A model generated the notes under the pieces. The model worked only from the letters and a program-made list of their open reading frames with translations. It was not told where the DNA came from and did no database searches. The position numbers and the translations under genes are program-made. From an uncultured Acidobacteriota bacterium (GTDB lineage: Bacteria; Acidobacteriota; UBA4820; DSQY01), in contig CAVRTJ010000034.1 in NCBI GenBank assembly GCA_963724125.1, positions 18,237 to 82,236 on the forward strand: 64,000 nucleotides of DNA, given 5' to 3'. Numbering within the stretch: the first letter of the stretch is position 1; every line of letters begins with the position of its first letter. Shown here one piece after another: positions 1 to 64,000 of the stretch.

Positions 1-3000
1 ATCACGGTGAACATGCACAATACGATCGTGTGGGCTAGCCAGAGTGATTTTGTCAAGAACGGAGGCGGTACCTTCGTCGATGACGGCCACAACTTCGACA
101 GCGACGGGACGAGCGGGTTTACCAACGGCGTGAACGGCGACATCGTGGGCACGGCGGGTTCGCCGCTGAATCCCGGGATCCGCCCGCTGGCCGATAACGG
201 CGGTCCGGTCAAAACCCAGGCCCTCCTGCCCGGCAGCGCGTGCATGGACGCCGGCGACCCGACTTTCTCCAATTCGGCGCCCACCGTGGACGCGCGCGGT
301 GCCACCCGCTCGGGCCCCGACGCTGACGGCAACGGGGACGGCACCTCCGCTCCGGACATCGGCGCCTACGAGTACCAGCGCTACGTGGTGGTCAACACGA
401 ACGACAGCGGAGCCGGATCCCTGCGCGACGCCATCGACCACTCGAACACCTACGGCGGCGAGGTGGCCTTCGCCATCCTGCCCGTCGGCACCGGTACAGG
501 CCATCAGTCCGGCGTCGCCGCTTCCCACTATTTCTCTGCCGACCTTCGTGGACGGCTGGAGCCAGGGCGGGACCGGCTACAAGGGGCCGCCGCTGGTGCG
601 TGTAGACGGGACCTCCGCAGGGCACGGCGCCGTCTGTCTGAACGTTGAGGCGCCGTACACCACCGTGCGGGGCGTGGACGCCACTGCGTTCGGCATCGGC
701 ATTGAAATTTCGGGAAGCGCCCACGACGTCTGGATCTACGGGTGCTACGTCGGCGTGGAAATGGACGGCACGACCGCGGCCGGCAATCTGGAGATCGGCG
801 TCTTTGAACTGCCCGGACCCTCGCAGGTCCTCATCGGGACCAACGCGGACGGCGTGGACGACGCGGCCGAGCGCAACGTCATCGCGGGCAACGGCATCGG
901 CACCGGCTTCGAAAACGTCCTGCTCAGGGGATCGAGCACGACCGTGGCCGGGAACTACATCGGCCTGGGCGCCGACGGGACCACGGCCCTCGGCGACGGC
1001 ACCGGCGTCACCGTGCTGACTCCGGGGAACATCATCGGCGGGACCGCCCCCCACGCGGGAAACGTCATTTCGGGTAACCACAACGAGGGCGTGGGCATCC
1101 TCACCGATCACACCACCGTTCAGGGCAACCTCATCGGGACTACGGCGGACGGCCTCTCGCCCCTGGGGAACGGGGGCGCCGGCGTCGTCATCTACAACTA
1201 CCACGGGAAGGACACCCACAACCTCATCGGCGGCTCGTCGTCCTCCGCGCGCAACGTGATCTGCTACAACAGCACCGACGGCGTCTCGCTGTACAACGGC
1301 GCCTCGAACGAGACGGTCCAGGGGAACTACATCGGCGTCGGCTCGGACGGCGTCACCCTCATGGGCAACCATTACCAGGGCGTGTACGTGACTGGATCCG
1401 ATAACACCGTCTCCGGCAACGTGCTCTCCGGAAATGGCGACTCCGGCGTCACTCTCACAGGCACCGGCGCCACCGGCAACGTCGTGGCCGGCAACCTGAT
1501 CGGCGTGGACGCCACGGGTCTGGTCGACGTGGGCAACGTGGGACCCGGGGTGCGTATCAGCAACGGCGCCAACCACAACCGAATCGGGACCGATTCCGGC
1601 GCAGCGAACAGCGATGACCGCAACGTGATCGCATGCAACAACCGCGACGGCGGCGGCATCTACTACGACAACGCGAATGTTCTCCTTAAGGACTCCGGCA
1701 CGGACTCCAACACGATCAGCGGAAACTGGATCGGGCTCGACAAGACCGGCGCGGCGACCTTCTCTCCCAACGGCGGGCCACGCGGGATCATATTGGTCGC
1801 CGGTCCCTCGAACAACACCATCGGGGGCACGACGGTCTACACGCGCAACGTCATCTCGGGCAACCAGCACACGGGCGTCGAAATCGTCGGATCGGGCACA
1901 AACGCCAACGTGATCGAAGGCAACTACGTGGGCACCGACTTCACCGGCACGAAAGCGATCGGCAACAACCACGGGATCCAGACGTACTACACGGGCAATG
2001 CCGGCACCCGGATCGGCGGGACGGCCGCAGGCGAGGGCAACCTCATCTCCGGCAACCACTACAACGGCATCAACTTCGACGATAACACGACCCAGGGCAC
2101 GCTCGTCGAAGGCAACCTCATCGGTACGGCCGCCGACGGCACGTCGGCCCTGGGCAACTCCGCCAACGGTCTGGCCTTTTACGGCGCGTCCGGCTGCACC
2201 GTGGGCGGATTCGACGCCGCCGACGCCAACGTGATCGCCGCCAACGGACAGGCGGGCATCGCGGTCTACTACGGCACCGGCGACACGTTCGAGGGCAACA
2301 GCATCCACGACAACGGCGGCCTGGGCATCGACCTGGGCGGCAACGGCGTCACGCCGAACCAGGGTTGTCAGCCGAGCGGGCCGAACCACTGGCAGGCCTA
2401 CCCTGTCCTGTCCGTCACGCCCACCGAGGTGAACGGAACCCTCTCCAGTTGTCCCAACGCCGACTACAGGATCGAATTCTTCGCGAGCCCGTCGCCCGAT
2501 CCCTCGGGGTACGGCGAGGGGCAGACCTTCCTGGGCGCCATCCCCGTCACGACCGACGGCGCGGGCAACGCCTCCTTCAGCTACGCCTACACCTCGGGCA
2601 CGCCCGCGCCGGCCATCACGGCTACGGCCACCCTGCTCGACACCGGCGACACGTCCGAGTTCTCGGCGGCGTGCGGGGTCGTGAGCCTCGGGCCGTCCGC
2701 CCTCAAGACCGCCACGGCCAGCCTGCCCTACACCCAGCAGCTCACGGCCTCCATGGCCATCCCCGGCGGCTCGGGCTTCACCTTCGCCCTGGCACCGGGC
2801 AGCCAGTTGCCGGCGGGTCTTTCGCTTTCGACCGGCGGCCTCATCACCGGCACGCCCACCGTGGTCGGCGACTTTTCCTTCACCGTCGTGGCCACCGAAA
2901 TCACCGCCGGCCACGACCCCTGCTCAGGCAGCCGGAAATTCTCGCTCAGCGTCGTCTGTCCGACCATCCTGATCACCCCGGCCACCCTGCCCGCGGGCGT

Positions 3001-3529
3001 CAAGGGCCAGAGCTATACCGTGAAGCTCACCCCCTCGGCCGGCGTCCCGCCCTTCGATTTCCAACTGAAGTCGGGCAACCTGCCTCAGGGTTTGACGCTT
3101 GCCTCCGACGGCACCATCAGCGGGGCGTATGCCGGCACCGGCACGACCGCCTTCACGATCGAGGTCACCGACAAAAACGGGTGCACGGGACAGCAGTCGT
3201 ACACGGTCAGCGTCTTCAACCTGAGCTATCACGACGACTCGGGAAGGTCGGTCCTCTGCGTGGATACCACGACGGGGGCCTACCGGTGGGCGGTCCTTTC
3301 GGGCATCCATGCGGGTAAGGTCTACACCGGCACGCTGCACGTCTACAACAGAGGAACCCTCTTTTGGAGCCAGGGCGGGCCGGGCCCGACCATCATCTTC
3401 AACTACTTTCCTTCAAGCCACGTGGCGTGGGGTTTCCTCTACGATTCCTCGACCCCCGTCTATTCGAGGCTCCACGACTCGAACACGCTTAACGATCCAT
3501 CCGGTTGCGGCGCCCTGCCGCCCGTCTGA
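1..3529 (+). CDS. Secreted multi-module parallel beta-helix repeat protein with C-terminal He_PIG-type Ig-like repeats; 5' end outside window; apparent frameshift near 495-530
   Basis: Frame +1 from position 1 reads the end of one beta-helix module (ADNGGPVKTQALLPGSACMDAGDP...DIGAYEY) and the start of the next (VVNTNDSGAGSLRDAIDHSN...EVAFAILPVGTG). From about 530 the sense continues in the +2 frame (ORF 299-3529) with ISLPTFVDGWSQ and many NVISGN/GNYIG turn motifs. The C-terminal part has two repeats of the LP.G..LS...G.ITGTPT Ig-like pattern. Stop TGA at 3527-3529. Confidence 0.75.
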
Positions 3530-7299: not shown

Positions 7300-8874
7300 C
7301 TAGGGCCGGCTCTCGTGCGGCCCGTGGCCCGACAGGCCGCGGTTCGCACCGCGGCGGAGGACGTTGTACACGAAGTGCCGCGCCCGGCTGGATGGCTGGT
7401 GCGCCGAACGCCTGGCGATGGAGCCGAGCCGGTAGAACTCTCTTCGCGCCCAGAGGAACCCCTCCCACAACTGCTCGGGCGTCATGTGCGCCGGCCGGAT
7501 GACCACCCTGTCCTGCGTGTACCGGTCCCAGTCGCGGGTGAGGATCCGGCCTTCGCCGGCCAGGCGCTCGTGCAGGCGGGTGCCGGGGTAAGGCGTGAGG
7601 AGCTGGAAGGTGCCGGTGCTCAGGTTGACGGACTGGGCCCACGCGACGGTTTTCTCGAAAACGTCGGGCGTGTCCTCGTCCAGGCCGAAGATGAAAGAGC
7701 CCTCCACGGCGATCCCGTGGTCCTGCAGGCGGCGCACGCCATCCTCGGGCGGGCCCGCCGCGCCGAGCTTGCGGAAACGCTCCGGCCCGCTCCTGCCGAT
7801 CGTCTCCAGGCCCAACAGCAGGCCCATGCAGCCGCTCTTCCGCGCAAGGTCCATCAGCCCGGCGTCTTTGGCGATGCTGAGGGAGGCCTGGGAAACCCAC
7901 CGCTTCCCCATGGGCGCCAGGCCCGCCAGCAGCTCGGCGCAGTAGGCCGGGCTCGCGTTGATGTTGTCGTCGAGAAAGAGCACGAACCGCCCGGGCAGCG
8001 CCTCGACCTGCTCGAGCACGTCGCGCAGCGGCCGGTGCCGGAACCGCCGCCCGAACACTGGCACGACGGAGCAGAAGTCGCAGTCCCAGGGACAGCCCCG
8101 CGCCGTCTGCACGAGGTTCCGCGTGAGGTACCGGATGCCGTTCCCGGCGTCCGTCCGGGGCGGCGGCACGCCGTCGAGCGGGAAGTTCTCTGGGGCCGCG
8201 TACCTGGGCTGGAGGGCCTTCTTCTCGAAGTCGGCCAGGAGCCGGGGCAGGACCGGTTCGGCCTCCCCCACCACCACGGCGTCGGCGTGGGCGGCGGCCT
8301 CGTCCGGCAGCGTGGACGGGTGGATGCCGCCCAGCACCACGGGGACGCCGGCCGCCCGGGCGCGATCCGCGAGCGCGTAGGCGCACCCCGCCTGGGCGGT
8401 CATGGCCGTGATGCCCACTAGGTCGGCCTCGAAGGGTCCGGGGAAGACGCCCTGCGCGTTCTCGTCCCACAGAACCACGTCCCAGTGGGCGGGGGCCAGC
8501 GCGGCCACCTGGAAGAGGCTGACCGGCGGCAACTGGAAGAACCGGATCCAGTTGGACGTGTTTTTCCACGGGTTGATCAGCAACAGCTTCGGCATTCGCG
8601 CCCTCCGTTCCGTCTTCACGGCCCGTCTGTCCCTCCGATCCCTTCGTTCTTCCCGTTTCTGTATCATGTCCTTGATATCGTGCAACTCCTTCGACAAATC
8701 CCTGGCGGCCACGCTGTTCTTGTAGGCCATCACGATCAGTTTTACCGACACGAGAAGGACACCGGCCTCCAACAGCAGATCGTGCGTCAGGCCCTTGGCG
8801 AACAGCGCCAACCCGAATAGGCCGAAGGTGACGACGATGATCACGAGCGACCCGGCGTCGAAGTGCTCACGCAT
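7300..8874 (-). CDS. B12-binding radical SAM protein with an N-terminal ~90-aa two-helix membrane extension
   Basis: From MPKLLLINPW the sequence has the cobalamin-binding-domain pattern followed by the radical SAM cysteine motif CPWDCDFC (CxxxCxxC). In-frame upstream extension MREHFDAGSLVIIVVTFGLFGLALF...LLVSVKLIVMAY has two hydrophobic helices and an Arg-rich linker. SD AGGAG precedes the ATG at 8874; a second strong SD GGAGGG lies 6 nt before the internal ATG at 8595, which is an alternative start. Confidence 0.8.
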   Translation of the reverse strand: MREHFDAGSLVIIVVTFGLFGLALFAKGLTHDLLLEAGVLLVSVKLIVMAYKNSVAARDLSKELHDIKDMIQKREERRDRRDRRAVKTERRARMPKLLLINPWKNTSNWIRFFQLPPVSLFQVAALAPAHWDVVLWDENAQGVFPGPFEADLVGITAMTAQAGCAYALADRARAAGVPVVLGGIHPSTLPDEAAAHADAVVVGEAEPVLPRLLADFEKKALQPRYAAPENFPLDGVPPPRTDAGNGIRYLTRNLVQTARGCPWDCDFCSVVPVFGRRFRHRPLRDVLEQVEALPGRFVLFLDDNINASPAYCAELLAGLAPMGKRWVSQASLSIAKDAGLMDLARKSGCMGLLLGLETIGRSGPERFRKLGAAGPPEDGVRRLQDHGIAVEGSFIFGLDEDTPDVFEKTVAWAQSVNLSTGTFQLLTPYPGTRLHERLAGEGRILTRDWDRYTQDRVVIRPAHMTPEQLWEGFLWARREFYRLGSIARRSAHQPSSRARHFVYNVLRRGANRGLSGHGPHESRP

Positions 8875-9010
8875 TCCCGCTCCTGTCCGCGCCGTGCGCC
8901 GGCCGGAGCATGAGGCAGGCGACGTCAGCAAGAAGCGCCGCGACGCCCGCCACCACGAGGGATGCGCCCGTCTCCCCGAACGCAGGCCCGGTCAGAATGT
9001 TTGAACCCAT
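8867..9010 (-). CDS. Hypothetical 47-aa small protein with one hydrophobic helix, translationally coupled to the radical SAM gene
   Basis: ATG at 9010 preceded by GGAGG at 5-nt spacing. Product MGSNILTGPAFGETGASLVVAGVAALLADVACLMLRPAHGADRSGNA. Its stop TGA overlaps the ATG of the downstream radical SAM gene (ATGCGTGA). No family recognised; could be a spurious ORF. Confidence 0.3.
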   Translation of the reverse strand: MGSNILTGPAFGETGASLVVAGVAALLADVACLMLRPAHGADRSGNA

Positions 9011-9261
9011 TCGTGCCTCCATTCGGCTGTCGCGGGCACACCCGGCGCCCTCTCGGCGTTCGAGGCGTCCCCGAATCGACCGTTGGCAAGCCTGATCATT
9101 TGTCACCTGTGTTCAGTATACCGTATTTCGCCGCGGACCCGGCCATGTCCCCGGGCCTGAAATAGCCTGGGCGGTTCACGGGTTTCCTAAGACGACGCAT
9201 GTGGACGAAGGCGTGGTCCGGGAATGGGCGCGCCTCTTGACCCGTATAGGAAGGAGACCTA

Positions 9262-9894
9262 GTGAGACATTCGACACTCAGGCACATCGTACTGGCAATC
9301 GGCATAACGGCCATGGTCGGCGCGGCGGCGCTCGCCGCCGAACCAGCCACGCAGAACTACAAGATAGACCCCGCCAATTCGTCGGTCGGCTTCAGCATCC
9401 GCCACCTCGTTTCCAGGGTGCAGGGCCAGTTCGACGCCTTCTCGGGTGAAGTGCGCGTCGACGCCGCGGACTCCGCCGCCTCGTCCGTCTCGTTCACCAT
9501 CCAGACGGCCTCCATCGACACGCACGTCGCCATGCGCGACAAGGACCTGCGGTCGGCCAACTTCTTCGACGCCGCGAAGTTCCCCACGATCACGTTTAAG
9601 AGCACGAAGATGGTCGAAAAGGGGAAGGACCGCTACGACGTCTACGGCACGCTGACCATGCACGGCGTCGCAAAGGACGTTGTTCTGCCCGTCGTCTACA
9701 CCGGCAGGATCAAGGACCCGTGGGGCAACGAGCGGTTGGGCTTCACCATCGAGACGACGCTCGACCGCAAGGACTACGGGATCGTCTGGAACAAGGTGCT
9801 CGACGACGGGAGCGTCTTACTGGGCAACGACGTGGCCGTTACCATCCACATCGAGGCGGTCAGGCCGCTGCACCCCCGCAAGAAGTCAAAGTAG
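9262..9894 (+). CDS. yceI: YceI-like periplasmic polyisoprenoid-binding protein
   Basis: Signal peptide followed by the YceI-family pattern (YKIDPANSSVGFSIRHLVSRVQGQF...TITFKST...YDVYGTLTMHGV). GTG start at 9262 with SD AAGGAGA. Divergent from the radical SAM gene. Confidence 0.85.
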   Translation: MRHSTLRHIVLAIGITAMVGAAALAAEPATQNYKIDPANSSVGFSIRHLVSRVQGQFDAFSGEVRVDAADSAASSVSFTIQTASIDTHVAMRDKDLRSANFFDAAKFPTITFKSTKMVEKGKDRYDVYGTLTMHGVAKDVVLPVVYTGRIKDPWGNERLGFTIETTLDRKDYGIVWNKVLDDGSVLLGNDVAVTIHIEAVRPLHPRKKSK

Positions 9895-9904
9895 GCAACT
9901 CGTT

Positions 9905-46440: not shown

Positions 46441-46494
46441 GATAGGCGTCTCCTTGATGCGGCCCGGCCCACACATGGGCCGGATACCGGAATG

Positions 46495-49940: not shown

Positions 49941-50297
49941 ATGAAGTTATACGTCGGGAACCTGTCGTACGAGACCAGTGAAGACGACCTGAAAGACCTC
50001 TTCGCCGCCTACGGCGAACCAAGTTCGATCAGGATTATCACGGACCGTGTCACCAGGCGTTCAAAGGGCTTTGGATTCGTCGAGTATGAAGATGACGACC
50101 AGGCCCGCGCCGCGATGAGCGCCCTGAACGGCAAGGAAGTTGCCGGCAGGGCTTTGACGGTCAACGAAGCCCGCCCACAGACGCAGAGTGGTGGACCGGG
50201 TGGCGGCCGCGGTCCCGGCCGCGGCGGGCGCGGTCCCGGCCGCGGCGGTTTCGGTGGCGGCCGAGGCGGATTTGGAGGCGGAGGCGACCGCTACTGA
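49941..50297 (+). CDS. Glycine-rich RNA-binding protein with single RRM domain
   Basis: RNP-2 (KLYVGNLSY) and RNP-1 (KGFGFVEY) motifs followed by an RGG/GGF repeat tail. SD GGAAGGAAG before the ATG at 49941. Confidence 0.85.
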   Translation: MKLYVGNLSYETSEDDLKDLFAAYGEPSSIRIITDRVTRRSKGFGFVEYEDDDQARAAMSALNGKEVAGRALTVNEARPQTQSGGPGGGRGPGRGGRGPGRGGFGGGRGGFGGGGDRY

Positions 50298-50345
50298 AGT
50301 TCCTTCGGCTCCGCCCACCGGGGGCGGATTCCCGAACACGAGAGA

Positions 50346-50376
50346 GGGAGGGGCACCTCTGGGCCCCTCCCTTTTT
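50346..50376 (+). terminator. Rho-independent terminator after the RRM gene, in the convergent gap with the acyl-CoA ligase gene
   Basis: 9-bp stem gggaggggc/gcccctccc with 8-nt loop followed by ttttt. Confidence 0.6.
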
Positions 50377-50436
50377 CATTGCGCCGCGGTGCCGGAGCGG
50401 TTCTCCGGATGTCGTCCCTTTTCAGGACCGCCCTCC

Positions 50437-52251: not shown

Positions 52252-52310
52252 CTTCCCCTCCTCCGCTCGCAGCGCCTGCCGTTAAATATAATTCTAATGT
52301 CCCAGAGTGC

Positions 52311-52342
52311 AAAGAAAAAGGGCGGGGAAACCGTCCCCGCCC
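52311..52342 (-). terminator. Rho-independent terminator after the S46 peptidase gene (minus strand)
   Basis: 8-bp stem gggcgggg/ccccgccc with 7-nt loop; on the minus strand it is followed by tttttcttt, about 40 nt past the stop. Confidence 0.55.
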
Positions 52343-52379
52343 GATTCTGCAAAACTCACCGGCACTGCCGGAGGCCCCG

Positions 52380-54474
52380 CTACTTGGCCGCCGCCGTGAG
52401 TTCCCCGGCGACCCGGCTTGCGCCGTACAGTTTGTTCAGCGCTTGGAGAATGGCGGGCGTATCCACCGCCACGCATCGCGCGACCTTTTCTGAATACACG
52501 AAGGTGTTGGGATTGCTCTGTGGGTTTCCGTCGAAAACCAGTCCCACCAGTTTGCCTTCCCTATCGACGATCGGGCTGCCCGAATTGCCGCCCGTGATAT
52601 CTCCCGTGCACACGAAGTCCATGGGCGTCTTGAGGTCGAGTTCGTCCCGCCGCAGTTCTTCCATCTTGCTGAGCTGGAAGTCTCCCCTGTTGTCGAAGGA
52701 ATAGGCACGGTTATAAAGGCCGTAGAAGGTCGTTTTGTACGGCACTTCACTCGTGTCGAAGGCGTAGCCTTTCACGACGCCGAAAGCCAGCCGGAGCGTA
52801 CCCGTCGCGTCGGGATACACGTCATCGCCGTACACTGCGAACTGCGCATTGGCGATCTGCGTCAAGGCCGGCTGAACAACGGCCTCCACATGGTCTTTCA
52901 CGGCTCTGTGCACGCGCCTGAGAGTCGGATCCATAAGCCGGACAAAAGCGATGAGCGGATCCTTGCACGATTTCACGGCGGCACCCTTGCTCACGAGAAG
53001 GGAAGCGCGGTAGGATGCGTCGTCCAGCCGCGTTCCTCCCATCACTTCCTCGGCCCGCCGGGCCGGCGTCTTCCCGTCAAGAAGCGCTTTCACATATGCG
53101 TTCACGGCGCCGAGCTTGTCCCGCAATACCGTCAGGTCGTAGGCGAGAAGGGCCGCATCCATGCCCTTGTAATAGGGCCGATCGGCCTTGAGGCGCCGCA
53201 TGAGACCCGGGATCTGGGCGTCGTGGTAACCATCCAGCCGTTGGCCGTCAGGCTTGTTCGCTTCTTCTGAATACCGAAGGATTCTCAGCGCGACCCCGGT
53301 CAGTCCATACGCACCGGGGGCCCTGCCTTCGTAGGTTAATTCCTTGAAGTGCTCCCGTTCCCAGTTCACGGATTTCTCGATCTGTTTCCAGGCATTCTCG
53401 TAGTGTGTCAGTTCGGGTTCCGGCGATGGCGTCCCGGAGATTCTTCTCCTGCCGTGCTTTCTTCGCCATCAATGCGGGATTCTTGAGGCCGTCGTATTCG
53501 CCCGTCAGGGCCTTGATGCTGTTGTGGACGAAGAAGATGATCGACTGGGCTTCCTGTGCCTGTTCGGGGCCCTTCTTGCTATAGACGGTCAACACTTCGT
53601 CCATCCCCTTGAGCCTTTCGAGAATGGCCGGATAGCTCACATCTCTGAAATATTCGAGCTGGGCCAGCGTGTCCAGTCGGTCCGTCCTTCCCGGGTGGCC
53701 CGAAACGAAGATCGGCATGCCGTCCGTGACGCCCGCCGGGTCCACCTTCAAGTAGTCCGGCGTATGCGCGGGCTTGCCGTTTTCGTAGACGCGGAGGAAG
53801 CTGAAGTCCAGGTCGTACCGGGGATAGTAGAAATTGTCCGCGTCGCCGCCGAAGTAGGCCGCCTTTTCTTCCGGCGCCATAACGATGCGCACATCGGTGT
53901 ACTCCTTGTAGCGGTAGAGCATGTAGCGGGCCCCGCCGTAGAGCTTGACGACGTTTCCGCGCAGACCCGTCTCTTCCCGGCAGGCCTTCTCCATGTTCGC
54001 GATCTTCGCCTCGCGCGCCTGCTGCGCCTGCACCGCCGTATCTCCGGCCTTGACGGCGGAATCCACCTCGTCGGTGACGTCCTCCATGGAACGCAGCACT
54101 TCGATCATGGCGCCCGGCACCATGAGTTCATCGGCCTGTGACCTGGCGTAGAACCCGTCGTCCACGTAGTTATGCTCGGGCGTAGAGAGCTGCTGGAGAT
54201 ACATGCGTGCCACGTGATGGTTCGTCAGGATAAGGCCGTCGGGGGATACGAACGACCCGCTGCCGCCCCCGATCCCGACGGACGACAGGCGGAGGTGGTC
54301 GAGCCACGCCTGCGAAGGCGTGAATCCGTAGCGTTTCTGGATGAGCTTAGTGGGGGGGTGGCTGTAGGTCCACATGCCCTCGTCGGCGCGCGACGCCGTC
54401 GACAAGCCGAACGCGCACGCAGCGGCCACCGCAAGTGCTGCAAAACTCCTTAGGACATTTCTCTGATGGGTCAT
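52380..54474 (-). CDS. S46-family dipeptidyl-peptidase (DPP7/DPP11-like serine peptidase), secreted; apparent frameshift near ~53400
   Basis: Signal peptide, then N-terminal S46 signature DEGMWTYSHPP...GSGSFVSPDGLILTNHHV (catalytic His) in the frame of ORF 53248-54549; C-terminal catalytic Ser region CTGDITGGNSGSPIVDREGKLVGLVFDGN in the frame of ORF 52380-53369. SD AGGAGG before the ATG at 54474. Confidence 0.8.
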
Positions 54475-54618
54475 GATGCCTCCTGAATGTATGCTGGACA
54501 CAAAAATAGCGAAGAGAGATATACGCGGGTGACGCGGACTTTGTTTCAACCGTCTTTCCGATCACTCCGGGGTTTGGCACAGGTCATGCTGTCCCGTCGT
54601 GAATCGACGGGTGCGGGC

Positions 54619-55383
54619 TCAGTCCGCAGACCTCGCCAGGGTTCGCGGGTCCCTGTCCCCCGCGAGAATCAACCGCCAGAGGTCGGCCAGGGTTCCCTGG
54701 CCGAAGAGGTTCCCTGATTCCGCCGGCCTGGGTTCGTCCTCCGGCGCGACCCACCACCCTCTGATCCCGAGCTTTGAAGCGTTTTCCATATCCCAGACCC
54801 AGTCGTCGCCCACCATGAGACATGCCTCCGGAGAGCACCCGATGCGATCGAGAATCTCACGGTAGTAGGCCGGATTCTCCTTGGATGCGTGCATGTTCTC
54901 GTAGGTCGTGACCAGCGCGTAGGGATGGGCGTCGACACCGACACCCGCCCACTCCAGGCGCTGTTCAATGGCCGTCCTCGGAAACAGCGGATTCGTCGCG
55001 ACGACCACCTTAAGGCCGCACTCAAAGGCCCAGCGGACGAGTTTCGGCGCCTCGGGCACCGCCTGCGTGAACCGGCGCAACCCGGGGAATTCCTCCGAGT
55101 AAAACCGCATGAACAGCGGTTCGAGCTCGGCGCGGTCAACGCCGACCGCCGGATAGAACGTCGCCGCAAACACTTCCTCGTTCGTGGCGCCGTCTCCGCC
55201 ATTCGCGGCCATGATTTTCGTTGCGCGCAGAAGCTCCCTTATGAGTCTTTCGGGCGCGATGCGGTTTCCAAGAAAACGCCCTGCGGCCTCCAGATAGGCT
55301 GGAACGAACTGTTCCATGTCGTTCCGGAGGAGAGTGCCGTCCAGATCCAGAAGGAGGGCTTTGATCGTCGCCTGCGGTTTCAC
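54619..55383 (-). CDS. HAD-superfamily hydrolase
   Basis: HAD motif I LLLDLDGTLL near the N-terminus and a motif-IV-like LMVGDDWVWD; start placed at the GTG at 55383 with a GGGGGA SD-like element. Substrate unknown. Confidence 0.7.
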   Translation of the reverse strand: MKPQATIKALLLDLDGTLLRNDMEQFVPAYLEAAGRFLGNRIAPERLIRELLRATKIMAANGGDGATNEEVFAATFYPAVGVDRAELEPLFMRFYSEEFPGLRRFTQAVPEAPKLVRWAFECGLKVVVATNPLFPRTAIEQRLEWAGVGVDAHPYALVTTYENMHASKENPAYYREILDRIGCSPEACLMVGDDWVWDMENASKLGIRGWWVAPEDEPRPAESGNLFGQGTLADLWRLILAGDRDPRTLARSAD

Positions 55384-55504
55384 GCATCCCCCATGGGCTC
55401 GCCCCGGACCCTCGCACGGGGTGGCGGCCAAGACATCAGATTATACCCCAAGAAGGCCTCGGGACCTTTGCCGGCGCGTCAGAGCCGTCCGTATGTCCCC
55501 CCTA

Positions 55505-56812
55505 TCAGCTTTCTTCCGGCGTGTACCAGTCCCTGCGTGTGAGCGGAAATCCGCTTCGGCCGTTCTCTCCGGTCTTGATGAGAAGGCTCTGATAGACGTT
55601 CAGCCGCCCACGCGTGAATCCGTAGGCCGATCCGGCCATGAAGAGCCGCCAGACGCGGTAGGTCGGTTCGTCCACGCATTGGAGCGCCTTTTCCCGTCGA
55701 CTCTCCAGCCTGCGAACCCACCGGCGGAGGGTCAGCGCGTAGTGTTCGCGGAGGCTCTCCACGTCCCTCACTTCAAAGCCGACCTCCTCGGCGGCGCGAA
55801 GCGTGACGTGGATGGGCACCAGTTCGCCGTCCGGGAACACGTAGACGTCGCTGAATGAGGGTCCGCGCGTCGCTTCGTCCGTGGCGCGGCTCGCGATGCC
55901 GTGGTTCAGGAAAACCCCGCCGGGATTGAGCAGGCGCAGTGCCCGGTCGAAGTAAGTCGCCAGCAGCTTCTCACCCACGTGTTCGAACATGCCTATGCTG
56001 GCGATGGCGTCGTATCCCCGATCGTCTTCCACCTCGCGGTAGTCCCTGACCTCGACGCGGCATCGGTCGGAGAGTCCGGCGGCTGCGATTCGCTCGTTCG
56101 CCAACTCGGCCTGCGGCTCGCTCAGGGTTATACCGGTCGCGTCGACGCCGTAGCGCTTCGCCGCATAAATTGCCAGCCCGCCCCATCCGCAGCCCAGGTC
56201 CAGAAATCTCTGGCCCGGGTTGAGGCGAAGTTTGCGGCATACCAGGTCCAGTTTGCGCTCCTGGGCCTCGTCCAGCGTTTCCTCCGGCGAATGAAAGTAC
56301 GCACAGGAATACACCATGTGCCGGTCGAGCCACAGGGCGTAGAACTCGTTGGAGACGTCGTAATGGTAGCTGATGGCCTGCCGGTCGCGTTCCACCGAAT
56401 GGCGCTTGCCGGAGAGCCTGGCCGGCCCTCGGGCACCGACTGGGTGGTCCTTTCCTGCCGGAAGACGCAAGAGGTCCTTCGCCGCGAGCAGCTTGGTGCG
56501 CCAGCCGCCCGTCTTTTCTCCCAGAAAGTCCGCAAGCGCGAACACCGATTCGACGTCGCCTTCGATGTCCACCTCGCCGTACAGGAAGGCCTCGGCCAGC
56601 CCCACTTCGCTGCCGGCGAGCAACATGGCCCGAAGCGACCCCGGATGCTTCAGGATGATCGTGGTGCGGGAGACCGGATCCTCGGGCCACACGCTCCCGT
56701 CCCACAGTCGAAAGCCTGCCCCGATGGCCGGCGCGCCTCCGAAGAGATCCTGCAGAATCTTCAATGTCAGGCGCTTTGCTTGTCCGGATGAGGAATGAGC
56801 CTTTTCCGACAT
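55505..56812 (-). CDS. cfa: Cyclopropane-fatty-acyl-phospholipid synthase
   Basis: SAM-binding motif VLDLGCGWGGLAIYAAKRYG and CFA-synthase family conservation throughout. SD AAGGAGGA before the ATG at 56812. Confidence 0.85.
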   Translation of the reverse strand: MSEKAHSSSGQAKRLTLKILQDLFGGAPAIGAGFRLWDGSVWPEDPVSRTTIILKHPGSLRAMLLAGSEVGLAEAFLYGEVDIEGDVESVFALADFLGEKTGGWRTKLLAAKDLLRLPAGKDHPVGARGPARLSGKRHSVERDRQAISYHYDVSNEFYALWLDRHMVYSCAYFHSPEETLDEAQERKLDLVCRKLRLNPGQRFLDLGCGWGGLAIYAAKRYGVDATGITLSEPQAELANERIAAAGLSDRCRVEVRDYREVEDDRGYDAIASIGMFEHVGEKLLATYFDRALRLLNPGGVFLNHGIASRATDEATRGPSFSDVYVFPDGELVPIHVTLRAAEEVGFEVRDVESLREHYALTLRRWVRRLESRREKALQCVDEPTYRVWRLFMAGSAYGFTRGRLNVYQSLLIKTGENGRSGFPLTRRDWYTPEES

Positions 56813-56930
56813 GCCGTCCTCCTTGTGGTGCGGTGCTTTTCCCTGTTCGAATCCTCCTTCCTTGTCCACATCGATACTAACGTCTCACCCAGAGATTGCA
56901 ACCCAGTCAATTGCCCTCAACGTCATGCAC

Positions 56931-56960
56931 AAAAAGAAAGGGCGGGCCGGCCGACCGCCC
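56931..56960 (-). terminator. Putative Rho-independent terminator after serC (minus strand)
   Basis: GC hairpin (gggcgg ... ccgccc) followed on the minus strand by tttctttttt, about 30 nt past the serC stop. Confidence 0.5.
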
Positions 56961-56986
56961 TCCTTCTCACGACGTTTCACGGCGCT

Positions 56987-58087
56987 TCAGCCGTTTTTCT
57001 TCACGAACTCCTCCATGAAACCGCAGAGGGTTTCAACCTGGTCCACGGTCACGGCGTTGTACATGGACACACGGATGCCGCCCATGGTCCTGTAGCCCTT
57101 GAGGCCGACCATTCCCGCGGCCTTGGCTTCCGCCACGAACCTCGCGTCCAGGTCTTCGCTCGGAAGGTTGAAATCCACGTTCATGAAGGACCGGTCGTCT
57201 TTCACCTTCACGTAACCCTTGTAGAATTCGGGGTACTTGTCGATGACGCCGTAGAGCAGTTCGCCCTTCTTCAGGTTGTTCCTGTAGATGGCGTCCAGGC
57301 CGCCGATGGACTTGTTGTAGGCGAGGACGTTCCTGAGGATGTAGACCGAGAAGCAGGGCGGCGTGTTGAAGAGGCTGTTCTTCGCGGCCTGCACTTTGTA
57401 CTGCAGCATGTTGGGCAGGTTCTCGGCGCACATCTCGAGGAAGTCGTCGCGGATCAGCGCCACCACCAGGCCCGACGGGCCGAGGTTCTTCTGGGCGCCC
57501 GGCGTAGATGAAGCCGAAAGGGCTTCACGTCGAAGGGCCGCCACATCATGTCGGAGGACATGTCGGCCACCAGCGGAACGCCGCCGGTCTGCGGGAAGTC
57601 TTTCCACTGCGTGCCGTAGATCGTATTGTTGGAACAGAAGTGCACGTAGGCCGCAGTCGGGGTTGACATGGATCTCGTCGGGCCTCGGCAGGCGGTTGAA
57701 CTTCTCTTCTTCCGTGGATACGATTGCCCTCGCGGCGTCTCCCGCTACGGTTTTCGCCTCCTTGAAGGCCTTCTTCGCCCAGTTTCCAGTCACGATGTAA
57801 TCGGCCTTGCGCCCCGAATGGAGAATGTTCATGGGAAGCATGGCGAACTGGAGATTTCCGCCGCCCTGCAGCAGGAGCACCTTGTAGTTGTCGGGGACGT
57901 TCAGGAGCTCCTTCACGAGTGCGATGGCCTCGTTGTGCACCGCATCGTATTCCTTGGACCGGTGGGAGATCTCCATGACGGACATTCCCGTTCCTTCGAA
58001 ATCCAGCAGTTCCGCCTTCGCCCGCTCGAGAGCCTGCACCGGAAGCCCGGCGGGGCCGGCGTAGAAATTGATAACCCGATTAACCAT
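56987..58087 (-). CDS. serC: Phosphoserine aminotransferase; two apparent frameshifts (~57655 and ~57520)
   Basis: N-terminus [17 protein letters not shown]-terminus [15 protein letters not shown]; the central segment ([17 protein letters not shown]...[12 protein letters not shown]) is encoded in the frame of ORF 57454-57669. SD AGAGGAGAAGG before the ATG. Confidence 0.8.
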
Positions 58088-58104
58088 GACCTTCTCCTCT
58101 TTTC

Positions 58105-58979
58105 CTATTTTCCGAAGCCGGAAATGATATCCACGATGATGTCCCCGATTCGCAAGAGGTTCTCCTTGCTCGACGCGCCGATGTGGGGCGTCATCAGGAC
58201 GTTCGGCGCACGCAGGAGCGGGCTCGACGGATCGGGAGGATCGGAGTACCACACGTCCGTCGCGTAGGCCCTCACCTTCCCGGACTCCAGCGCTTCCGCC
58301 AGGTCCGCCTCGTTAACGACCTTGCCCCGGCCCGTGTTCACCAGGATGACCCCGTCCTTCATCTCTGGCGATCATGGCCCGGTTCACCATGCCCTTCGTT
58401 TCGTCGGTGAGCGGCGTGTGCATGCTGATGTAGTCCGCCGAGGCCAGCACGTCGCCCTCTTCCTTCATCTCGGCCACGGGATGGCTCTGGACGAAGGGGT
58501 CGTAAGCCACCACCTTCATGCCGAAGGCGGCGGCCCTCTTGGCCACTTCGGTGCCGATGAGGCCTACGCCCAGGAGGCCGAGCGTCTTCTGGTAGAGCTC
58601 AGTGCGCTTGAGTTCCTTCTTGATCCACTTGCCTTCCTTCATGCTGGTATGGCCCTCGACGATGCGGTTCGGCACGGCCAGCATGAGCGCCATGGTCAGC
58701 TCGGCCACGGCCACGGACGAGGCCTGGGGGGTATTCCGTAACCTCTATTCCACGGCTCTTGCACGTCTCCCGGTCCACGTTGTCCAGGCCCACGCCGCCG
58801 CGAATGACCAGCTTGAGGTTCGGGGCGCCTTCCAGGAACTCCCTGGTTACCTTGGTCTTGGAGCGGATGAGCAGGACATCCGCCTCGGAGAGTCTGCCCA
58901 TGTCTTCGTAAACGTCGCCGAAGGTCTTCAGACGGCCCGGAAGCGACGCGTCAAATGCATCCGCGATCAGGATCTTCAT
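58105..58979 (-). CDS. D-isomer-specific 2-hydroxyacid dehydrogenase, SerA-like (probable phosphoglycerate dehydrogenase); two apparent frameshifts (~58720 and ~58365)
   Basis: Three consecutive ORF fragments in different frames together give the family pattern: N-terminal substrate domain (MKILIADAF...), NAD-binding GLLGVGLIGTEVAKR, catalytic region (ILVNTGRGKVV...MTPHIGASS). SD GGGAGGA before the ATG at 58979. Confidence 0.7.
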
Positions 58980-59066
58980 TTTTATCCTCCCGTTTATCCT
59001 AGAGGCGGGAAGGGGGCGGCATCCCCGGTAGAAGCTGGCCGTCCGTACCCCGCAGACTCGTGGAAA

Positions 59067-60306
59067 TCAATCTTCTATCAGCCTCACGATCAGCCCGGAA
59101 CGAAGTTTCGGTTCGAACCAGGTGGACTTGGGCGGCATGACATGGCCGGAGTCCGCCACGGACATGAGCTGTTCGAGCGACGTCGGGTACAGGGAAAAGG
59201 CGACGGCCCACCCCTCCCCGACCCGCTTCTCCAGCTCCTCGGTGCCCCGGATTCCGCCTATAAAATCAATACGCTCGTCGGTCCGCGGATCCTCGATGCC
59301 CAGGATCGGTGTCAGCAGGTTCTCCTGAAGGATAGAGACGTCCAGACTCTTTACCGGGTCGTTCGCCGGAAAGGTCCCCTCCTTTGCGCGAAGGCTGTAC
59401 CATCGGCCGCCGAGGAACATGCCGAATCGCCTGGGCGCGCCGGGCCTTGGATCCGAAGCCGGCGACAGGTCGAAACGTCTCCTTGACCTTGTCCGCGAAG
59501 AGCTCCGGCGCCAGACCGTTCAGGTCCTTGACCACGCGGTTGTAGTCCAGGATCTGCAGCTGATCGTGGGGGAAGACCACGGCCATGAAGTACTCGAAGG
59601 GCTCCTCGCCAGTGTGGGTCGCGCTCTTTGCGCGGAGAGCCTGACCGGTTCTCACGGCGGCCGCCGTCCGGTGATGCCCGTCGGCGACGTAGAGCGCGGG
59701 CACCGCGGCAAAGTGGCGCTCGAGGTCCGCTATGTCTTCGTCGTCCGCCACGACCCAAACCGTGTGTCCGATGCCGTCCTCCGTTACCAGGTCGTAGACC
59801 GGGTCGCAGCTGCGGGCCCTTTCGACGATCTCATCGATGGCCGACCTGGACCGGTAGGTGAGAAAGACGGGTTCCGCGTTGGCGTTCTGCTCGGTCACGT
59901 GGCGCGTGCGGTCGTCTTCTTTGGTCTTTCGGGTGAACTCGTGTTTCTTGATCAGGCCGTCCTCGTACTCCTTCACGGAGCAGAGACAGACGATCCCCGC
60001 CTGAACGTGTTCTCCCATCTTCTGCTGGTAGACGTACAGGCAGGGCTGTGACTCCTTGACGAGGGTTCCTTCGGAGATGAAGCGCCTCAGGTTTTCCACG
60101 CCCTTGGCGTAGACCCTGTCGTCGTAGAGCGAGATCGACGGTTCGAGGTCGATTTCGGGCTTGCCCACATGTAAAAAAGACAAGGGATTGCCATCGGCGA
60201 TTTCCCTGGCCTCCTCCGAGCTGATCACGTCGTACGGGAAGCTGGCGATTTTGTCCGCGAGTTCAGGCTTTGGCCTGTAACCCCGAAAAGGCTTGATGCG
60301 AGACAT
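59067..60306 (-). CDS. DUF1015-family protein (conserved, function unknown); apparent frameshift near ~59425
   Basis: N-terminus MSRIKPFRGYRPKPELADKIASFPYDVISSEEAREI and the internal YVADGHHR motif resemble DUF1015 proteins; the C-terminal ~115 aa are encoded in the frame of ORF 59067-59420. Confidence 0.7.
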
Positions 60307-60705
60307 AGTAACCCCCTGGCGGGCTGGTTTCCTCTGAAGTTTTCACCATGCACACCCCGGCTACGCCCGCAACTTGGTGCCGGGGATGCGAGACGCCAGC
60401 ATAGAACACGCCTGCAGTACGTTCAAGATAGGCCCTGGACGATTACCGGACCAAGGTGTCAAGTCGCCCACGGCCGCGGAGGTTTCCGTGGGCCGGCTTT
60501 GGCCCGAAGCCTTATCCTCCCCAGGGTGGCGATGTGCCCTCGGCGGCCCTGGGGCCTTGGAGCGGCTGTCCGGCCTCTCTTTGCGCCAAAAGGCCCGTAA
60601 GGACCCTGGTCGCTGACCGTTTCTGATGCAGAATACCCGTTCTGCGGTGTATACTCCCGTACTTGGGGTTCACCGGGTCCGCATCTTCATGGGAGGAATG
60701 AGATC

Positions 60706-61614
60706 ATGTCCATGCTCGCCGTGAGAAAAGCCGTCGCCAATTCGATACCCGGCAGGCTCGTCCGGGTATTCGCTTCGCCCTACGTCTCCGGGGACTCGCT
60801 CGAAAAGGGGCTCGCCTTCGCCGACGCCCTGTACAAAGAACAGGGCATCGAGGCGACCATGGACGTGCTGGGCGAGGCCGAAAAGACCCGGGAAAAGGTA
60901 CGCGGCGCGGTCGAACTCTACCTGAGTACCCTCGATGCGATCAAGGAGCGTCAGTACTGCTCCATTTCGGTCAAACCGGGCCATTTCGGCTACTACGTCG
61001 ACCCCGACTTCTGCAGGAAGAACCTCGAAGAACTGGCATCTGCCTGCCAGTCGGCCGGACGCGGTCTCACCATCGACATGGAGGACACGGATCTCACGGA
61101 TTTCACGCTGCAGCTCTACAAGGAACTGAAGCCGAAATACCCCGTGCTGGGCACCGTTCTCCAATCCCGCCTCTACCGGACCGAAGCCGACATCGATCGG
61201 CTGGACGGTCTCAACGCCCACGTGCGCGCCTGCATAGGTATTTACAACGTACCGGCGGACAAGGCCTACCAGAACAAGCGCGACATGAAGGAAAACCTCC
61301 TCAAAATCATCGAAAAGCTCTTCGACAGAGGTCACTACGTCTGCGTCGCCACGCACGACCTCGAATATCTCGAAAAGGCGCGAGCGCTCATCGCCCGCAA
61401 GAAAGTCCCCAGGGACCGCTACGAATTCCAGATGCTCGTCGGTGTCCCCCGGGACCGCGTGCAGAAAGAACTCGTGGAGACCGGCGAGAAGGTGAGGCTC
61501 TACGTCCCCTTCGCGGTTGATTGGGACGATGCGATCGCCTATCTACGGCGACGCATGATCGAGAGCCCTTCCATGACCGGCCTCGTGCTCAAAAACCTCG
61601 TCAAGCGGGGCTGA
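60706..61614 (+). CDS. Proline dehydrogenase (monofunctional PutA-like, PRODH TIM-barrel)
   Basis: PRODH-family conservation (ISVKPGHFGYY, LTIDMEDTDLTD, GIYNVPADKAY, VCVATHD). SD GGGAGGA 8 nt before the ATG. Confidence 0.85.
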   Translation: MSMLAVRKAVANSIPGRLVRVFASPYVSGDSLEKGLAFADALYKEQGIEATMDVLGEAEKTREKVRGAVELYLSTLDAIKERQYCSISVKPGHFGYYVDPDFCRKNLEELASACQSAGRGLTIDMEDTDLTDFTLQLYKELKPKYPVLGTVLQSRLYRTEADIDRLDGLNAHVRACIGIYNVPADKAYQNKRDMKENLLKIIEKLFDRGHYVCVATHDLEYLEKARALIARKKVPRDRYEFQMLVGVPRDRVQKELVETGEKVRLYVPFAVDWDDAIAYLRRRMIESPSMTGLVLKNLVKRG

Positions 61615-61738
61615 ACGTCTCCGCCTTCACGACCGCTTCTGCCGTTTCAAAGGCGCATTATCCGCGCCCGTCGAGGCACGCGCTGTCCTTCCCCTTCCTG
61701 AGGTCCTCCGCCCCTTGACCCCTCCATCTTTCTAAAGC

Positions 61739-61767
61739 TTGACCTCGTGGTATCGGGCATTTAAGTT
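61739..61767 (+). promoter_or_regulatory. Putative sigma70-type promoter for the downstream metalloprotease gene
   Basis: TTGACC, 17-nt spacer, TAAGTT; would give a ~300-nt leader. Weak -10 element; prediction only. Confidence 0.2.
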
Positions 61768-62073
61768 CTATAGGGGAGATCGTCACATTCGGTGCGGTCA
61801 CAGGGAGTCCTGAAACCCGGGGAGGCGGACCTAACTTATTCGCAGTAAAGCGCAGGCCTGAAGACCGGGAGGCGCCGCATCGCTCTCTCGATTGAAAGCG
61901 CATCAGGAAGCGATCAGGGCAGCGATTCAAACCGCGGCATTTTCCCGAAACAGCTAACGAACGGCTCTCTGTGCAGGTGAATGCCTGTGTCCACTAAGGT
62001 GGTGTGCCCGACACGGATGCCGTTCTCGCCCCCGCCTTATCTACCCGGATACCATAGTGGGGAGAAAGAAGCG

Positions 62074-64000
62074 ATGAGCAAGAAATTCGTCATTACGGTA
62101 TGTGCACTCGCGGCCTTCCTCCTTGCCGTCGACGCCCGTGCCTTCACACCCGAACCGGTACTCCTGCTCGAATGCCCTCCCGGCATGACTTTTACCGAAT
62201 GGACGGCAAACATGGCGAGCCGGGGGATTCACCTCAACCACGCTTTTCCGCCTGTCGGCGGCCTCCTTGTCCTTGCGCCCACGCAGGGGCTCTACGCGAC
62301 GATCGCCGACCTTCCCGCCGGAACGCTCACTTTCGAAGAGAGCCCGAGTGGAAAGGACGCGGACAGGCTGACCGCGACCTTCGAGGGCAGACTGCTGTGG
62401 CACGCCCAGCGCGCCCTTCTCGGGCTGGAGGGGCCGTCTGCGGGAGAATTCCAGTTACCCGGGCGCCCTCTCGATCACGACGTTTTGGAGCCTCTCGCCT
62501 ACCTCGGTCCGGAGGGCGCGTGCTCGGCTTACTCCCTCTACCGAACGACGTCCGAGTACATGCTCGGCACCGTATCTGTCAGCGTGATTCTGCCCGAGAG
62601 CACCGGTGCCGCCAGTACGGAGGACTGGACGCCGACGCTCGAAACCAACGTATCCAACGGCATCGTCCAGGGCCTCAACGATCTCTCCAATTACTACATC
62701 ACGCTCTTTTCTCTCCCCTCCTCCCTCAAGCCGACGTGGACCTACCACTACTATTTCGGGCGGACGGACGCGCGAGCCCAGGTCACCGTGGAGCCGATCA
62801 GCAATCCGGGTCCCACTGCCTCCAACCCCCAGTGGGTCAACACGATTTACGACAACCTGGGATATACCTCGGACTCCACGATGTGGGACAAGGGTCGCCA
62901 TTTCAACGGCGACCAGCGGGCCGGAGACGGAACGGACTGGGCTTACACCATATTCGTGGCCAACAGCCTCAACGACGCCGACGGGATGTTCAGCGACAGC
63001 AGCTTCGCCTACGCCTACCTGGGCGGTCCGTTCTGCGTCATGACCTACGACAACGACGGATGGACCATCAGCCAGATGAACGCGGTGGCACGCCACGAGT
63101 CCAGTCACATCTTTTACGCGCTGGACGAGTACAGCTCCTCCCCGTGCTACTGCACGCAGACGAGCGGTTACGTGAACTATCAGGACCAGAACTGCAACAA
63201 GTCCTGCCTTATCAATGTGCCCTGCATCATGAACGAGTCCTACCGGCAGTACAACGTCTGCTTCTACACGGCGGGCCAGATCGGTTGGGGCGACTCGGAC
63301 GCGGACGGCGTACCCGACCCCGTGGACATCGACCCGGACACCGCTCTCACCGCCTACGCCCCCGACCCCACGACGAACACGACCCTGACCTACACCGGCA
63401 CCGCGACGATCCAGACGAACTCCAACCAGAACATCTACCACTACATGTGCGACATGAACATCCTGACCATCGGCAACGTGCAGTACAGGGTCGACGGTGG
63501 CGCCTGGCAGAACGCGACGGCCTCCGACGGCGCCTTCGACAGCGGCACGGAAAACTACACCTTCACCGCCACGGTCACATCCGGCACCCACACCTTCGAC
63601 ACGAGAGCGATAGACGAGCTCGGACAGACGGACGCCAGCCCGGCCACGGATACCGTCACGGTGACGGCTACCTGTACCGATTCCTACGAACCCAACGACA
63701 CGTGCGCTACCGCCTATCTCCTCTCCTGCGGAGCAAGCATCAACGACGCGAAACTCTGCAGCGCTTCGGACCTGGATTACTTCGCCGTGACACCCGCGAG
63801 CACAGGCACCCTGGCGGTTTCCATGACGCCGCCTTCCGGGCGGGACTACGACCTCATCCTCTATTCAAACGACTGCGGCACCACCCTGTGCGCGCCCGGC
63901 GTGCGGGGGAGCGGAACGGAGACCTGCAACATCTCCGTGGTCGGTGGAACCACCTATAAGGTCCTGGTCGCTGGGTACGGTGGTGCCTACGACGCGGCCA
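62074..64000 (+). CDS. Secreted HExxH zinc metalloprotease with Y_Y_Y-like and pre-peptidase C-terminal (PPC) domains; 3' end outside window
   Basis: Open frame from the ATG at 62074 (SD GGGGAGAAAG) to the window end with no stop; it is not in the supplied ORF track because it runs off the window. Signal peptide MSKKFVITVCALAAFLLAVDARA; HExxH in AVARHESSHIFYALDEY; QYRVDGGAW...GTHTFDTRAIDELGQTDASPA motif; PPC-like YEPNDTCATAY...DLDYFAV...DYDLILY. Confidence 0.75.
   Translation, partial: MSKKFVITVCALAAFLLAVDARAFTPEPVLLLECPPGMTFTEWTANMASRGIHLNHAFPPVGGLLVLAPTQGLYATIADLPAGTLTFEESPSGKDADRLTATFEGRLLWHAQRALLGLEGPSAGEFQLPGRPLDHDVLEPLAYLGPEGACSAYSLYRTTSEYMLGTVSVSVILPESTGAASTEDWTPTLETNVSNGIVQGLNDLSNYYITLFSLPSSLKPTWTYHYYFGRTDARAQVTVEPISNPGPTASNPQWVNTIYDNLGYTSDSTMWDKGRHFNGDQRAGDGTDWAYTIFVANSLNDADGMFSDSSFAYAYLGGPFCVMTYDNDGWTISQMNAVARHESSHIFYALDEYSSSPCYCTQTSGYVNYQDQNCNKSCLINVPCIMNESYRQYNVCFYTAGQIGWGDSDADGVPDPVDIDPDTALTAYAPDPTTNTTLTYTGTATIQTNSNQNIYHYMCDMNILTIGNVQYRVDGGAWQNATASDGAFDSGTENYTFTATVTSGTHTFDTRAIDELGQTDASPATDTVTVTATCTDSYEPNDTCATAYLLSCGASINDAKLCSASDLDYFAVTPASTGTLAVSMTPPSGRDYDLILYSNDCGTTLCAPGVRGSGTETCNISVVGGTTYKVLVAGYGGAYDAA

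Follow-up and report, generated by a model that had tools for sequence, protein, structure and literature searches.

Single-base frame changes in a 64-kb contig segment from an uncultured Acidobacteriota bacterium are best explained by technical indel errors

The DNA analysed here (the window) is a 64-kb stretch containing about 37 genes. It belongs to a 92,434-bp contig from an uncultured, Thermoanaerobaculia-like member of the Acidobacteriota. Approximately 25 frame-changing events were identified in 13 or 14 of these genes, a rate of about 1 per 2.5 kb. The events are single-base indels and nearly all are extra bases; approximately 22 of the 25 are clean +1 insertions and 2 are deletions, giving a ratio of insertions to deletions of about 10 to 1. 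Their positions were fixed by nucleotide alignment of the window to related assemblies. These comprised independent assemblies with 94–95% DNA identity that together cover approximately 55 kb of the window, namely CAZDOY010000014 (loci L001 and L081) and four JGI contigs (L083, L084, L086, and L087), and three outgroups at approximately 78% identity. The read set SRR28003197 contains a population that is 99.85% identical to the window over positions 8558–9896.

In the first 38 kb, a net +1 change (491–496, plus strand) lies in a beta-helix/He_PIG gene (1–3526), where the alignment contains a 1-nt gap plus 2 extra nucleotides; in a tblastn search, residues 322–483 of the L081 orthologue matched frame 1 and residues 480–1494 matched frame 2. 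On the minus strand, a GH57 gene (9908–12359) contains an extra base at 12070, around codon 97, which was located by tblastn and alignment, and its product is a 731-aa fragment in the source record versus 817 aa in the other members of its protein cluster. The adjacent minus-strand gene (12359–16462) is a malQ-glgB fusion encoding one 1365-aa protein in the relatives, whereas the source record holds products of 644 and 604 aa. It is broken by an extra base at 16101 in the malQ part (around codon 121; tblastn and alignment), an A between C and C, and by a frame change in the linker (14267–14324), where the window has a net excess of 8 nt over L081, out of frame, and the tblastn match moves from frame −2 to −1. 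Because this linker is naturally variable, the latter change was counted without being split into individual events. Five extra bases, found by alignment with L083, are present in a SpoIIE/GAF sensor phosphatase gene (25020–27889, minus strand) at 26589, 26630, 26807, 26920, and 26931, and the product in the source record is a 505-aa fragment versus 889–935 aa for the full-length cluster members. An M16 peptidase gene on the plus strand (about 30519–33277) carries an extra base at 30598 (codon 26) that is missing from L083 and L084 and a second one at 31023 (codon 167; tblastn and alignment), the latter a G that comes after a T and adjoins GGGG; its product is a 750-aa fragment in the source record versus 903–917 aa in full-length cluster members. 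The weakest case of the set is an extra base at 37824 (minus strand) in the C-terminal tail of a GNAT acetyltransferase, which changes the last 24 or so codons and is not found in L086 or L087. The corrected frame yields an Arg/Gly-rich tail and a stop as in the relatives.

In the region from 39 to 60 kb, a PAS-GGDEF-EAL gene on the plus strand (about 39940–42423) contains three extra bases. Those at 40093–40095 and 40204–40205 were located by three-frame translation, the first against the L085 protein (the base is not present in L086 or L087) and the second together with alignment, and that at 41288 was located by tblastn and alignment. The product is a 356-aa fragment in the source record versus 825–833 aa for full-length cluster members. 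All the remaining events are on the minus strand. The hflC (47548–48511) and hflK (48511–49519) genes each contain one extra base, at 47875 (around codon 234 of the stop-to-stop ORF) and 48627, respectively, both found by alignment and tblastn; the hflK product is a 311-aa fragment in the source record versus 336 aa in eight cluster members. An S46 peptidase gene (52383–54474) instead lacks two bases, one at 53411 (Pfam, alignment, and tblastn) and one at 53421 (alignment), where GGG has become GG. The Peptidase_S46 profile matches over positions 1–343 in one ORF and 342–697 in the next, and the source record holds products of 408 and 273 aa versus 698–714 aa for full-length cluster members. 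In serC (56990–58087), extra bases were aligned at 57654 (also found by tblastn), 57517–57519, and 57497. Because the three sum to +3, the ORF remains open with approximately 52 codons out of frame, and at 90% identity the 366-aa product clusters with no other protein. A serA-like 2-hydroxyacid dehydrogenase gene (58108–58979) contains extra bases at 58365 and 58738, and a DUF1015 gene (59070–60306) contains one at 59479, all three located by Pfam, alignment, and tblastn. The 2-Hacid_dh_C domain is split at 58365 into profile positions 1–115 and 116–178, and the DUF1015 product is a 346-aa fragment in the source record versus 412 aa in four cluster members.

All 17 frame changes listed in the initial annotation of the window were confirmed, each lying 0–55 nt from where it had been placed, and about eight further events were found; the additions include 57497 in serC, three of the five SpoIIE sites, 14267–14324 in malQ-glgB, and 37824 in the GNAT gene. 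Single Pfam domains are split exactly across adjacent ORFs in different frames, with profile coordinates continuing from one piece to the next, and the 2-Hacid_dh, DUF1015, GH57, and MalQ_N domains are truncated at the places given in that annotation. At every listed site, consecutive segments of intact orthologues from close relatives matched different frames of the window in tblastn searches. When outgroup proteins were used as a control, multi-frame matches were obtained for none of 31 against the comparator contigs and for 8 of 32 against the window, and the multi-frame matches of the window are far beyond chance. In the alignments, the breaks appear as indels of 1–2 nt amid otherwise conserved sequence with conserved flanks, and no excess of mismatches was found within 10–50 nt of the indel sites. 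The events are clustered, with 8 gaps shorter than 200 nt versus 1.8 expected (P about 2e-4); such clustering is not predicted by a uniform error process.

Comparison with orthologous loci in close relatives, which had been proposed as a check, revealed intact versions of the broken genes in all relatives at 94–95% identity and in the outgroups at approximately 78%. The indels are private to the source contig and are lacking in some 10 or more independent assemblies with 78–99.4% identity. The closest of these, JGI contig L145, is the sole comparator above 99% and covers the 16101 site only; over 6118 aligned columns (99.4% identity) it differs from the window by 37 substitutions and one gap, which is the frameshifting base at 16101. 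In protein clusters at 90% identity, only products of the source contig end at the indel sites. The other members are full length or are partial calls from short contigs, and all those spanning the sites read through. Given that all related assemblies lack the extra bases, these almost certainly arose in sequencing or assembly rather than through biology.

If the frame changes were real, they would amount to the recent loss of a third of the genes in the region by pseudogenization or genome decay, and the uncompensated state of most of the affected genes, whose products would be truncated, is in keeping with this. Mycobacterium leprae and Sodalis glossinidius likewise have a large fraction of genes with disrupted frames. 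In those genomes the lesions are mixed, including nonsense codons, deletions, and insertion sequences, and selection is relaxed. The window, in contrast, contains only 1-nt indels: once the frames of the broken genes were reconstructed, they contained no in-frame stop codons, and no large deletions inside these genes were seen in the alignments to relatives, a search that addressed these two lesion types. Gene order is the same as in the relatives over the compared stretches. After removal of the indels, dN/dS was 0.07–0.20 in the broken genes versus 0.02–0.28 in the intact genes. Amino-acid changes relative to the outgroup were equally frequent in the window and the comparator, numbering 77 window-specific versus 76 comparator-specific changes in broken genes and 35 versus 39 in intact genes, with no lineage-specific acceleration. 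The broken genes are thus shown to be under normal purifying selection on both sides of the breaks, without relaxation. Together with the 99.4% identical contig that lacks the base at 16101, these features make gene decay highly improbable.

The types of lesion point in the same direction. Spontaneous indels in bacteria are biased towards deletions and concentrated in runs. The spectrum in the window, with approximately 22 non-repeat +1 insertions versus 2 deletions, is unlike that of natural mutation, which further argues against decay. Among 21 inserted bases, 14 are not flanked by an identical base, six form a run of 2, and one (57517–57519) lengthens a run to 3 nt. None of the 703 homopolymer runs of at least 4 nt in the window, and none of the 157 runs of at least 5 nt, is affected.

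The initial annotation had noted that several sites coincide with short homopolymers (cgggg at 31025 and tttt at 16090), hinting at homopolymer-length miscalls of the Nanopore, 454, Ion Torrent, or HiFi type. Among published errors, indels in homopolymers form the dominant class (PMC12007338; PMC9262707), and 6 or 7 of the 23 single-base events resolved to the nucleotide (26589, 26920, 26931, 40204, 48627, 57519, and the deletion at 53421) do touch a neighbour of the same base. This share is, however, at or below the approximately 44% expected if bases were drawn and placed at random. Errors in Nanopore assemblies are mostly homopolymer-linked deletions (PMC12007338), whereas about 90% of the events in the window are insertions, and these avoid homopolymers. 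The link with homopolymers was therefore not borne out, and the errors accordingly do not belong to the classic class of miscalled homopolymer lengths; that reading is very unlikely, having already been largely refuted by the counts of run context.

It is also conceivable that the extra bases are real and that gene expression compensates for them through programmed +1 ribosomal frameshifting, transcriptional slippage, or RNA editing. As in prfB-type frameshifting, a +1 shift is needed to read through each site; nearly all events have the same sign, and three of them sum to +3 in both serC and the GGDEF-EAL gene. A net +3 is, however, trivial if every event is +1, and the SpoIIE gene has five events and the M16 gene two. 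Programmed frameshift sites such as that of prfB are conserved. In the window, by contrast, 13 or 14 unrelated genes are affected, and the frameshift is conserved in none of the orthologues examined, all of which are in one frame. No slippery or stimulatory motif is common to the sites, no stop or rare codon is present at them, and no poly-A/T tracts that would allow slippage occur there. Extra bases occur at any position within the codon, with the next stop 9–765 codons downstream. Such a bypass has a nearly negligible probability. It is extremely unlikely that the DNA of the population truly contains the extra bases, which would imply either a very recent burst of non-repeat +1 insertions through an unknown mutational process or a lineage in which an undescribed recoding mechanism makes them tolerable.

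As the indels are private to one contig and accompanied neither by gene decay nor by a signal of recoding, technical indel error in the assembled sequence is, judging from these sequence comparisons, by far the best explanation and very probably the correct one. The initial annotation had already favoured indel errors over inactivation, and that reading is upheld by the private indels, the lack of relaxed selection, the lack of nonsense codons and large deletions, and the unnatural spectrum. The contig would accordingly represent a consensus with uncorrected single-base errors, mostly spurious extra bases, each of which would put out of frame a gene that the organism itself carries intact. With the frame shifted, gene callers report two or more fragments or, as in serC, an uninterrupted ORF whose central part is misread.

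Long-read assemblies are known to contain indels that fragment genes (PMC12007338; bioRxiv 10.1101/2021.08.23.457338; PMC9262707). As with the long-read or low-coverage assembly errors addressed by proovframe, Kastor, and IDEEL-type checks, 1-nt indels split conserved genes whose orthologues are intact, and the breaks in the window are amenable to correction by protein-guided alignment. The PacBio continuous long read (CLR) error profile is largely independent of sequence context. PacBio raw reads contain approximately 8% insertions, 3% deletions, and 2% substitutions (bioRxiv 10.1101/2021.08.23.457338), and the window is similarly dominated by insertions, although it is a consensus sequence and not raw reads. 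Its spectrum looks more like the CLR insertion bias than like homopolymer miscalling. The cause is most plausibly an error process that is biased towards insertions and independent of homopolymers; candidate sources include a poorly polished or low-coverage single-molecule (PacBio-CLR-like) consensus and a mixed-strain consensus, and the local clustering of events may mark stretches of poor support. A generally noisy consensus might also show an excess of substitutions, and none was found to accompany the indels. The commonest long-read artefact, the homopolymer-linked deletion of Nanopore assemblies (PMC12007338), has a different spectrum from that found here.

The finding bears on data quality only: in the public record, roughly one in three genes of the window is wrongly annotated as fragments, and pseudogene counts, pathway reconstructions, and protein-family entries derived from the contig are consequently unreliable until it is polished. 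The pathways touched include serine biosynthesis, the GlgE alpha-glucan pathway, and HflKC. Given the insertion-only, homopolymer-independent spectrum, the assembly would not be mended by polishing homopolymers alone. Fragments from the contig are already present in public protein collections, some of them as cluster representatives.

The G + C content of the window ranges from 58 to 70% along its length (mostly 61–67%), with a strong GC3 signal, and the frame plot contains numerous phase switches inside apparently single genes. In the Pfam search, single domains are cut exactly at ORF boundaries: Peptidase_S46 is divided into profile positions 1–343 in one ORF and 342–697 in the next, and 2-Hacid_dh_C into positions 1–115 and 116–178, while the first 100 profile positions of GH57 are absent and MalQ_N, DUF1015, and 2-Hacid_dh are truncated. 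When intact orthologues were searched against the window by tblastn, successive query segments landed in differing frames in the beta-helix/He_PIG, GH57, malQ–glgB (twice), SpoIIE phosphatase, M16, GGDEF-EAL, hflC, hflK, S46, serA-like (twice), and DUF1015 genes. As a control, outgroup proteins were searched against the comparator contigs and the window, yielding multi-frame matches in 0 of 31 and 8 of 32 cases, respectively.

The nearest relative, identified by searching an S46 peptidase fragment against species-representative genomes, is an Acidobacteriota short-read MAG labelled uncultured Thermoanaerobaculia. Its contig CAZDOY010000014.1 covers positions 5–22394 (L081) and 44295–61952 (L001) of the window at 94–95% nucleotide identity, and JGI contigs of the same similarity cover 25146–36085 (L083 and L084) and 36023–45929 (L086 and L087). 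Three outgroup contigs from two other MAGs (L002, L082, and L085; ~78% identity) provide partial coverage. A close comparator is absent only for 22.4–25.1 and 62–64 kb, and the ORFs in both stretches are intact.

Nucleotide alignment with these comparators placed each event at base level, except one in the malQ–glgB linker, which was located to 14267–14324 rather than to single bases. In total, ~25 events were identified, affecting 13–14 of ~37 genes at a density of about 0.4 per kb. All frame-change positions listed in the initial annotation were recovered, with offsets of 0–55 nt, and the alignments added the linker event, one at 57497 in serC, one at 37824 in the GNAT tail, and three of the five events located between 26589 and 26931 in the SpoIIE gene. 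A stop codon at 37719 that seemed to interrupt the beginning of the ATP-grasp/RLAN gene in frame was rejected as a candidate, because it terminates the frameshifted GNAT tail; the start of the RLAN gene is at 37709, the same as in relatives.

Approximately 22 events are clean +1 insertions and two are 1-nt deletions (53411 and 53421). The extra base can occupy any of the three codon positions, with 9–765 codons to the next stop. Among the 21 nucleotide-resolved insertions, 14 placed a base that differs from both neighbours, six produced a run of two, and one produced a run of three. The window contains 703 runs of ≥4 nt, all of which are free of the indels. The association with homopolymers remarked upon in the initial annotation therefore does not hold, and a homopolymer origin of the indels was rejected. 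Programmed frameshifting of any known kind was also excluded: the codon context of the sites contains no common motif, and conservation in orthologues would be expected but is not seen. The events are clustered (eight gaps of <200 nt vs 1.8 expected, P about 2e-4). Local low-quality stretches with added substitutions were rejected as an explanation, since mismatch density near the sites is not significantly raised; the clustering may have arisen from low-coverage patches or from mixed strains being merged into one consensus.

The proteins called in the 92,434-bp source record of the contig (NCBI and ENA) break off at the indel sites. About ten or more independent assemblies (JGI, ENA, Logan, and NCBI) contributed other proteins to the same clusters at 90% identity, and none of these proteins shows such a break. 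The source-record proteins and full-length cluster members measure 731 vs 817 aa for GH57, 750 vs 903–917 aa for M16, 644 + 604 vs 1365 aa for malQ–glgB, 346 vs 412 aa for DUF1015, 505 vs 889–935 aa for SpoIIE, 408 + 273 vs 698–714 aa for S46, 311 vs 336 aa for hflK, and 356 vs 825–833 aa for GGDEF-EAL. Several clusters also include proteins called only in part on short contigs, and in no case does the break coincide with an indel site. In the GH57, DUF1015, and SpoIIE clusters, the Logan members represent other populations (84–96% amino acid identity).

The strongest single result was obtained with JGI contig Ga0392312_0005171 (L145), the only one among the same-population assemblies sought that covers an indel site. 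It is 99.4% identical to positions 15518–21635 of the window, with 37 substitutions and a single gap, which falls at 16101, where the JGI contig lacks the frameshifting base. Logan contig SRR28003197_35727 (L144), which spans no indel site, is 99.85% identical over 8558–9896, the differences being two substitutions and, within a short variable stretch (8609–8629), eight gap columns and one further mismatch, indicating that the same population is present in the independent public run SRR28003197.

With the extra bases deleted, dN/dS against the 94–95% relatives was 0.07–0.20 for the broken genes and 0.02–0.28 for the intact genes, and no stop codon interrupts the broken genes in their reconstructed frames. 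Outgroup polarisation assigned 77 private amino acid changes to the window branch and 76 to the sister branch in the broken genes, and 35 and 39, respectively, in the intact genes, revealing no substitution excess on the window branch. Relaxed selection and an excess of substitution errors are thus both absent from this branch.

Spontaneous indels in bacteria are biased toward deletions and occur mainly in runs, and the virtually insertion-only, non-repeat, and substitution-free set of lesions is therefore unlike the products of bacterial mutation. Judging from the sequence comparisons, indels private to one assembly in genes under normal constraint appear to form the pattern of an under-polished consensus. 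The proposal of indel errors in the initial annotation is supported by this normal constraint and by the comparison with orthologous loci of close relatives that it had suggested, in which the related assemblies lack the indels. The frame changes almost certainly arose in the sequence record and do not reflect the biology of the organism, and CDS boundaries and pseudogene calls on this contig are untrustworthy until it is polished or frame-corrected. Gene-fragmenting indels have been documented in long-read assemblies (PMC12007338; bioRxiv 10.1101/2021.08.23.457338; PMC9262707). The insertion bias of the window resembles the profile of PacBio raw reads, in which insertions (about 8%) outnumber deletions (3%) and substitutions (2%) (bioRxiv 10.1101/2021.08.23.457338), but differs from Nanopore assemblies, in which homopolymer deletions are the dominant error (PMC12007338).

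The serC ORF stays open despite three insertions, with ~52 codons read in wrong frames. Because the three insertions sum to +3, tblastn returned a single match of lower identity. The misread stretch ends directly before the segment Ala-Gln-Lys-Asn-Leu-Gly, which we take to be the pyridoxal-phosphate lysine motif by analogy with Escherichia coli SerC. Were this sequence genuine, SerC would very probably lack activity.

The tRNA and Rfam scans of the window revealed nothing relevant. ARAGORN called a 96-nt 'tRNA-Phe' at 54568–54663 (+ strand), which begins in the S46/HAD intergenic spacer and overlaps the end of the HAD gene; no tRNA was found there by Rfam at the gathering threshold, and the call is thus probably a false positive. 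Relative to L001, the window lacks ~2.4 kb at 60519–60582, between the DUF1015 and proline-dehydrogenase-like genes (1405–3870 in L001, containing a 728-aa ORF), and has 137 nt upstream of hflC (47414–47551) vs ~1 kb (16837–17877 in L001). Two in-frame length differences, 27 additional nt in a small gene (46856–46882, relative to L001) and +12 nt (11 + 1) in the SpoIIE gene (26044–26066, relative to L083), look like natural variation and not errors.

At 9908–21836 (− strand), glgE, treS–mak, a malQ–glgB fusion, and a gene for GH57/DUF3536 form a complete alpha-glucan cluster of the GlgE type, in which start and stop codons overlap as ATGA. The malQ–glgB product of relatives is one polypeptide of 1365 aa that combines GH77, CBM48, and alpha-amylase domains, and the fusion is kept in at least three related assemblies. 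A long ORF overlapping glgE (16459–20784) does not reflect a frameshift but a chance upstream extension in GC-rich DNA; treS–mak starts at 19854–19857. The treS–mak and glgE region (16459–21833) shares 98–99% DNA identity with the CAZDOY contig (dS about 0.02), whereas identity falls to about 94% in the flanking genes (dS 0.1–0.3). On these sequence data, the region looks like a recent recombination tract common to two populations. The window and a third contig, L145, share 99.4% identity in the same tract.
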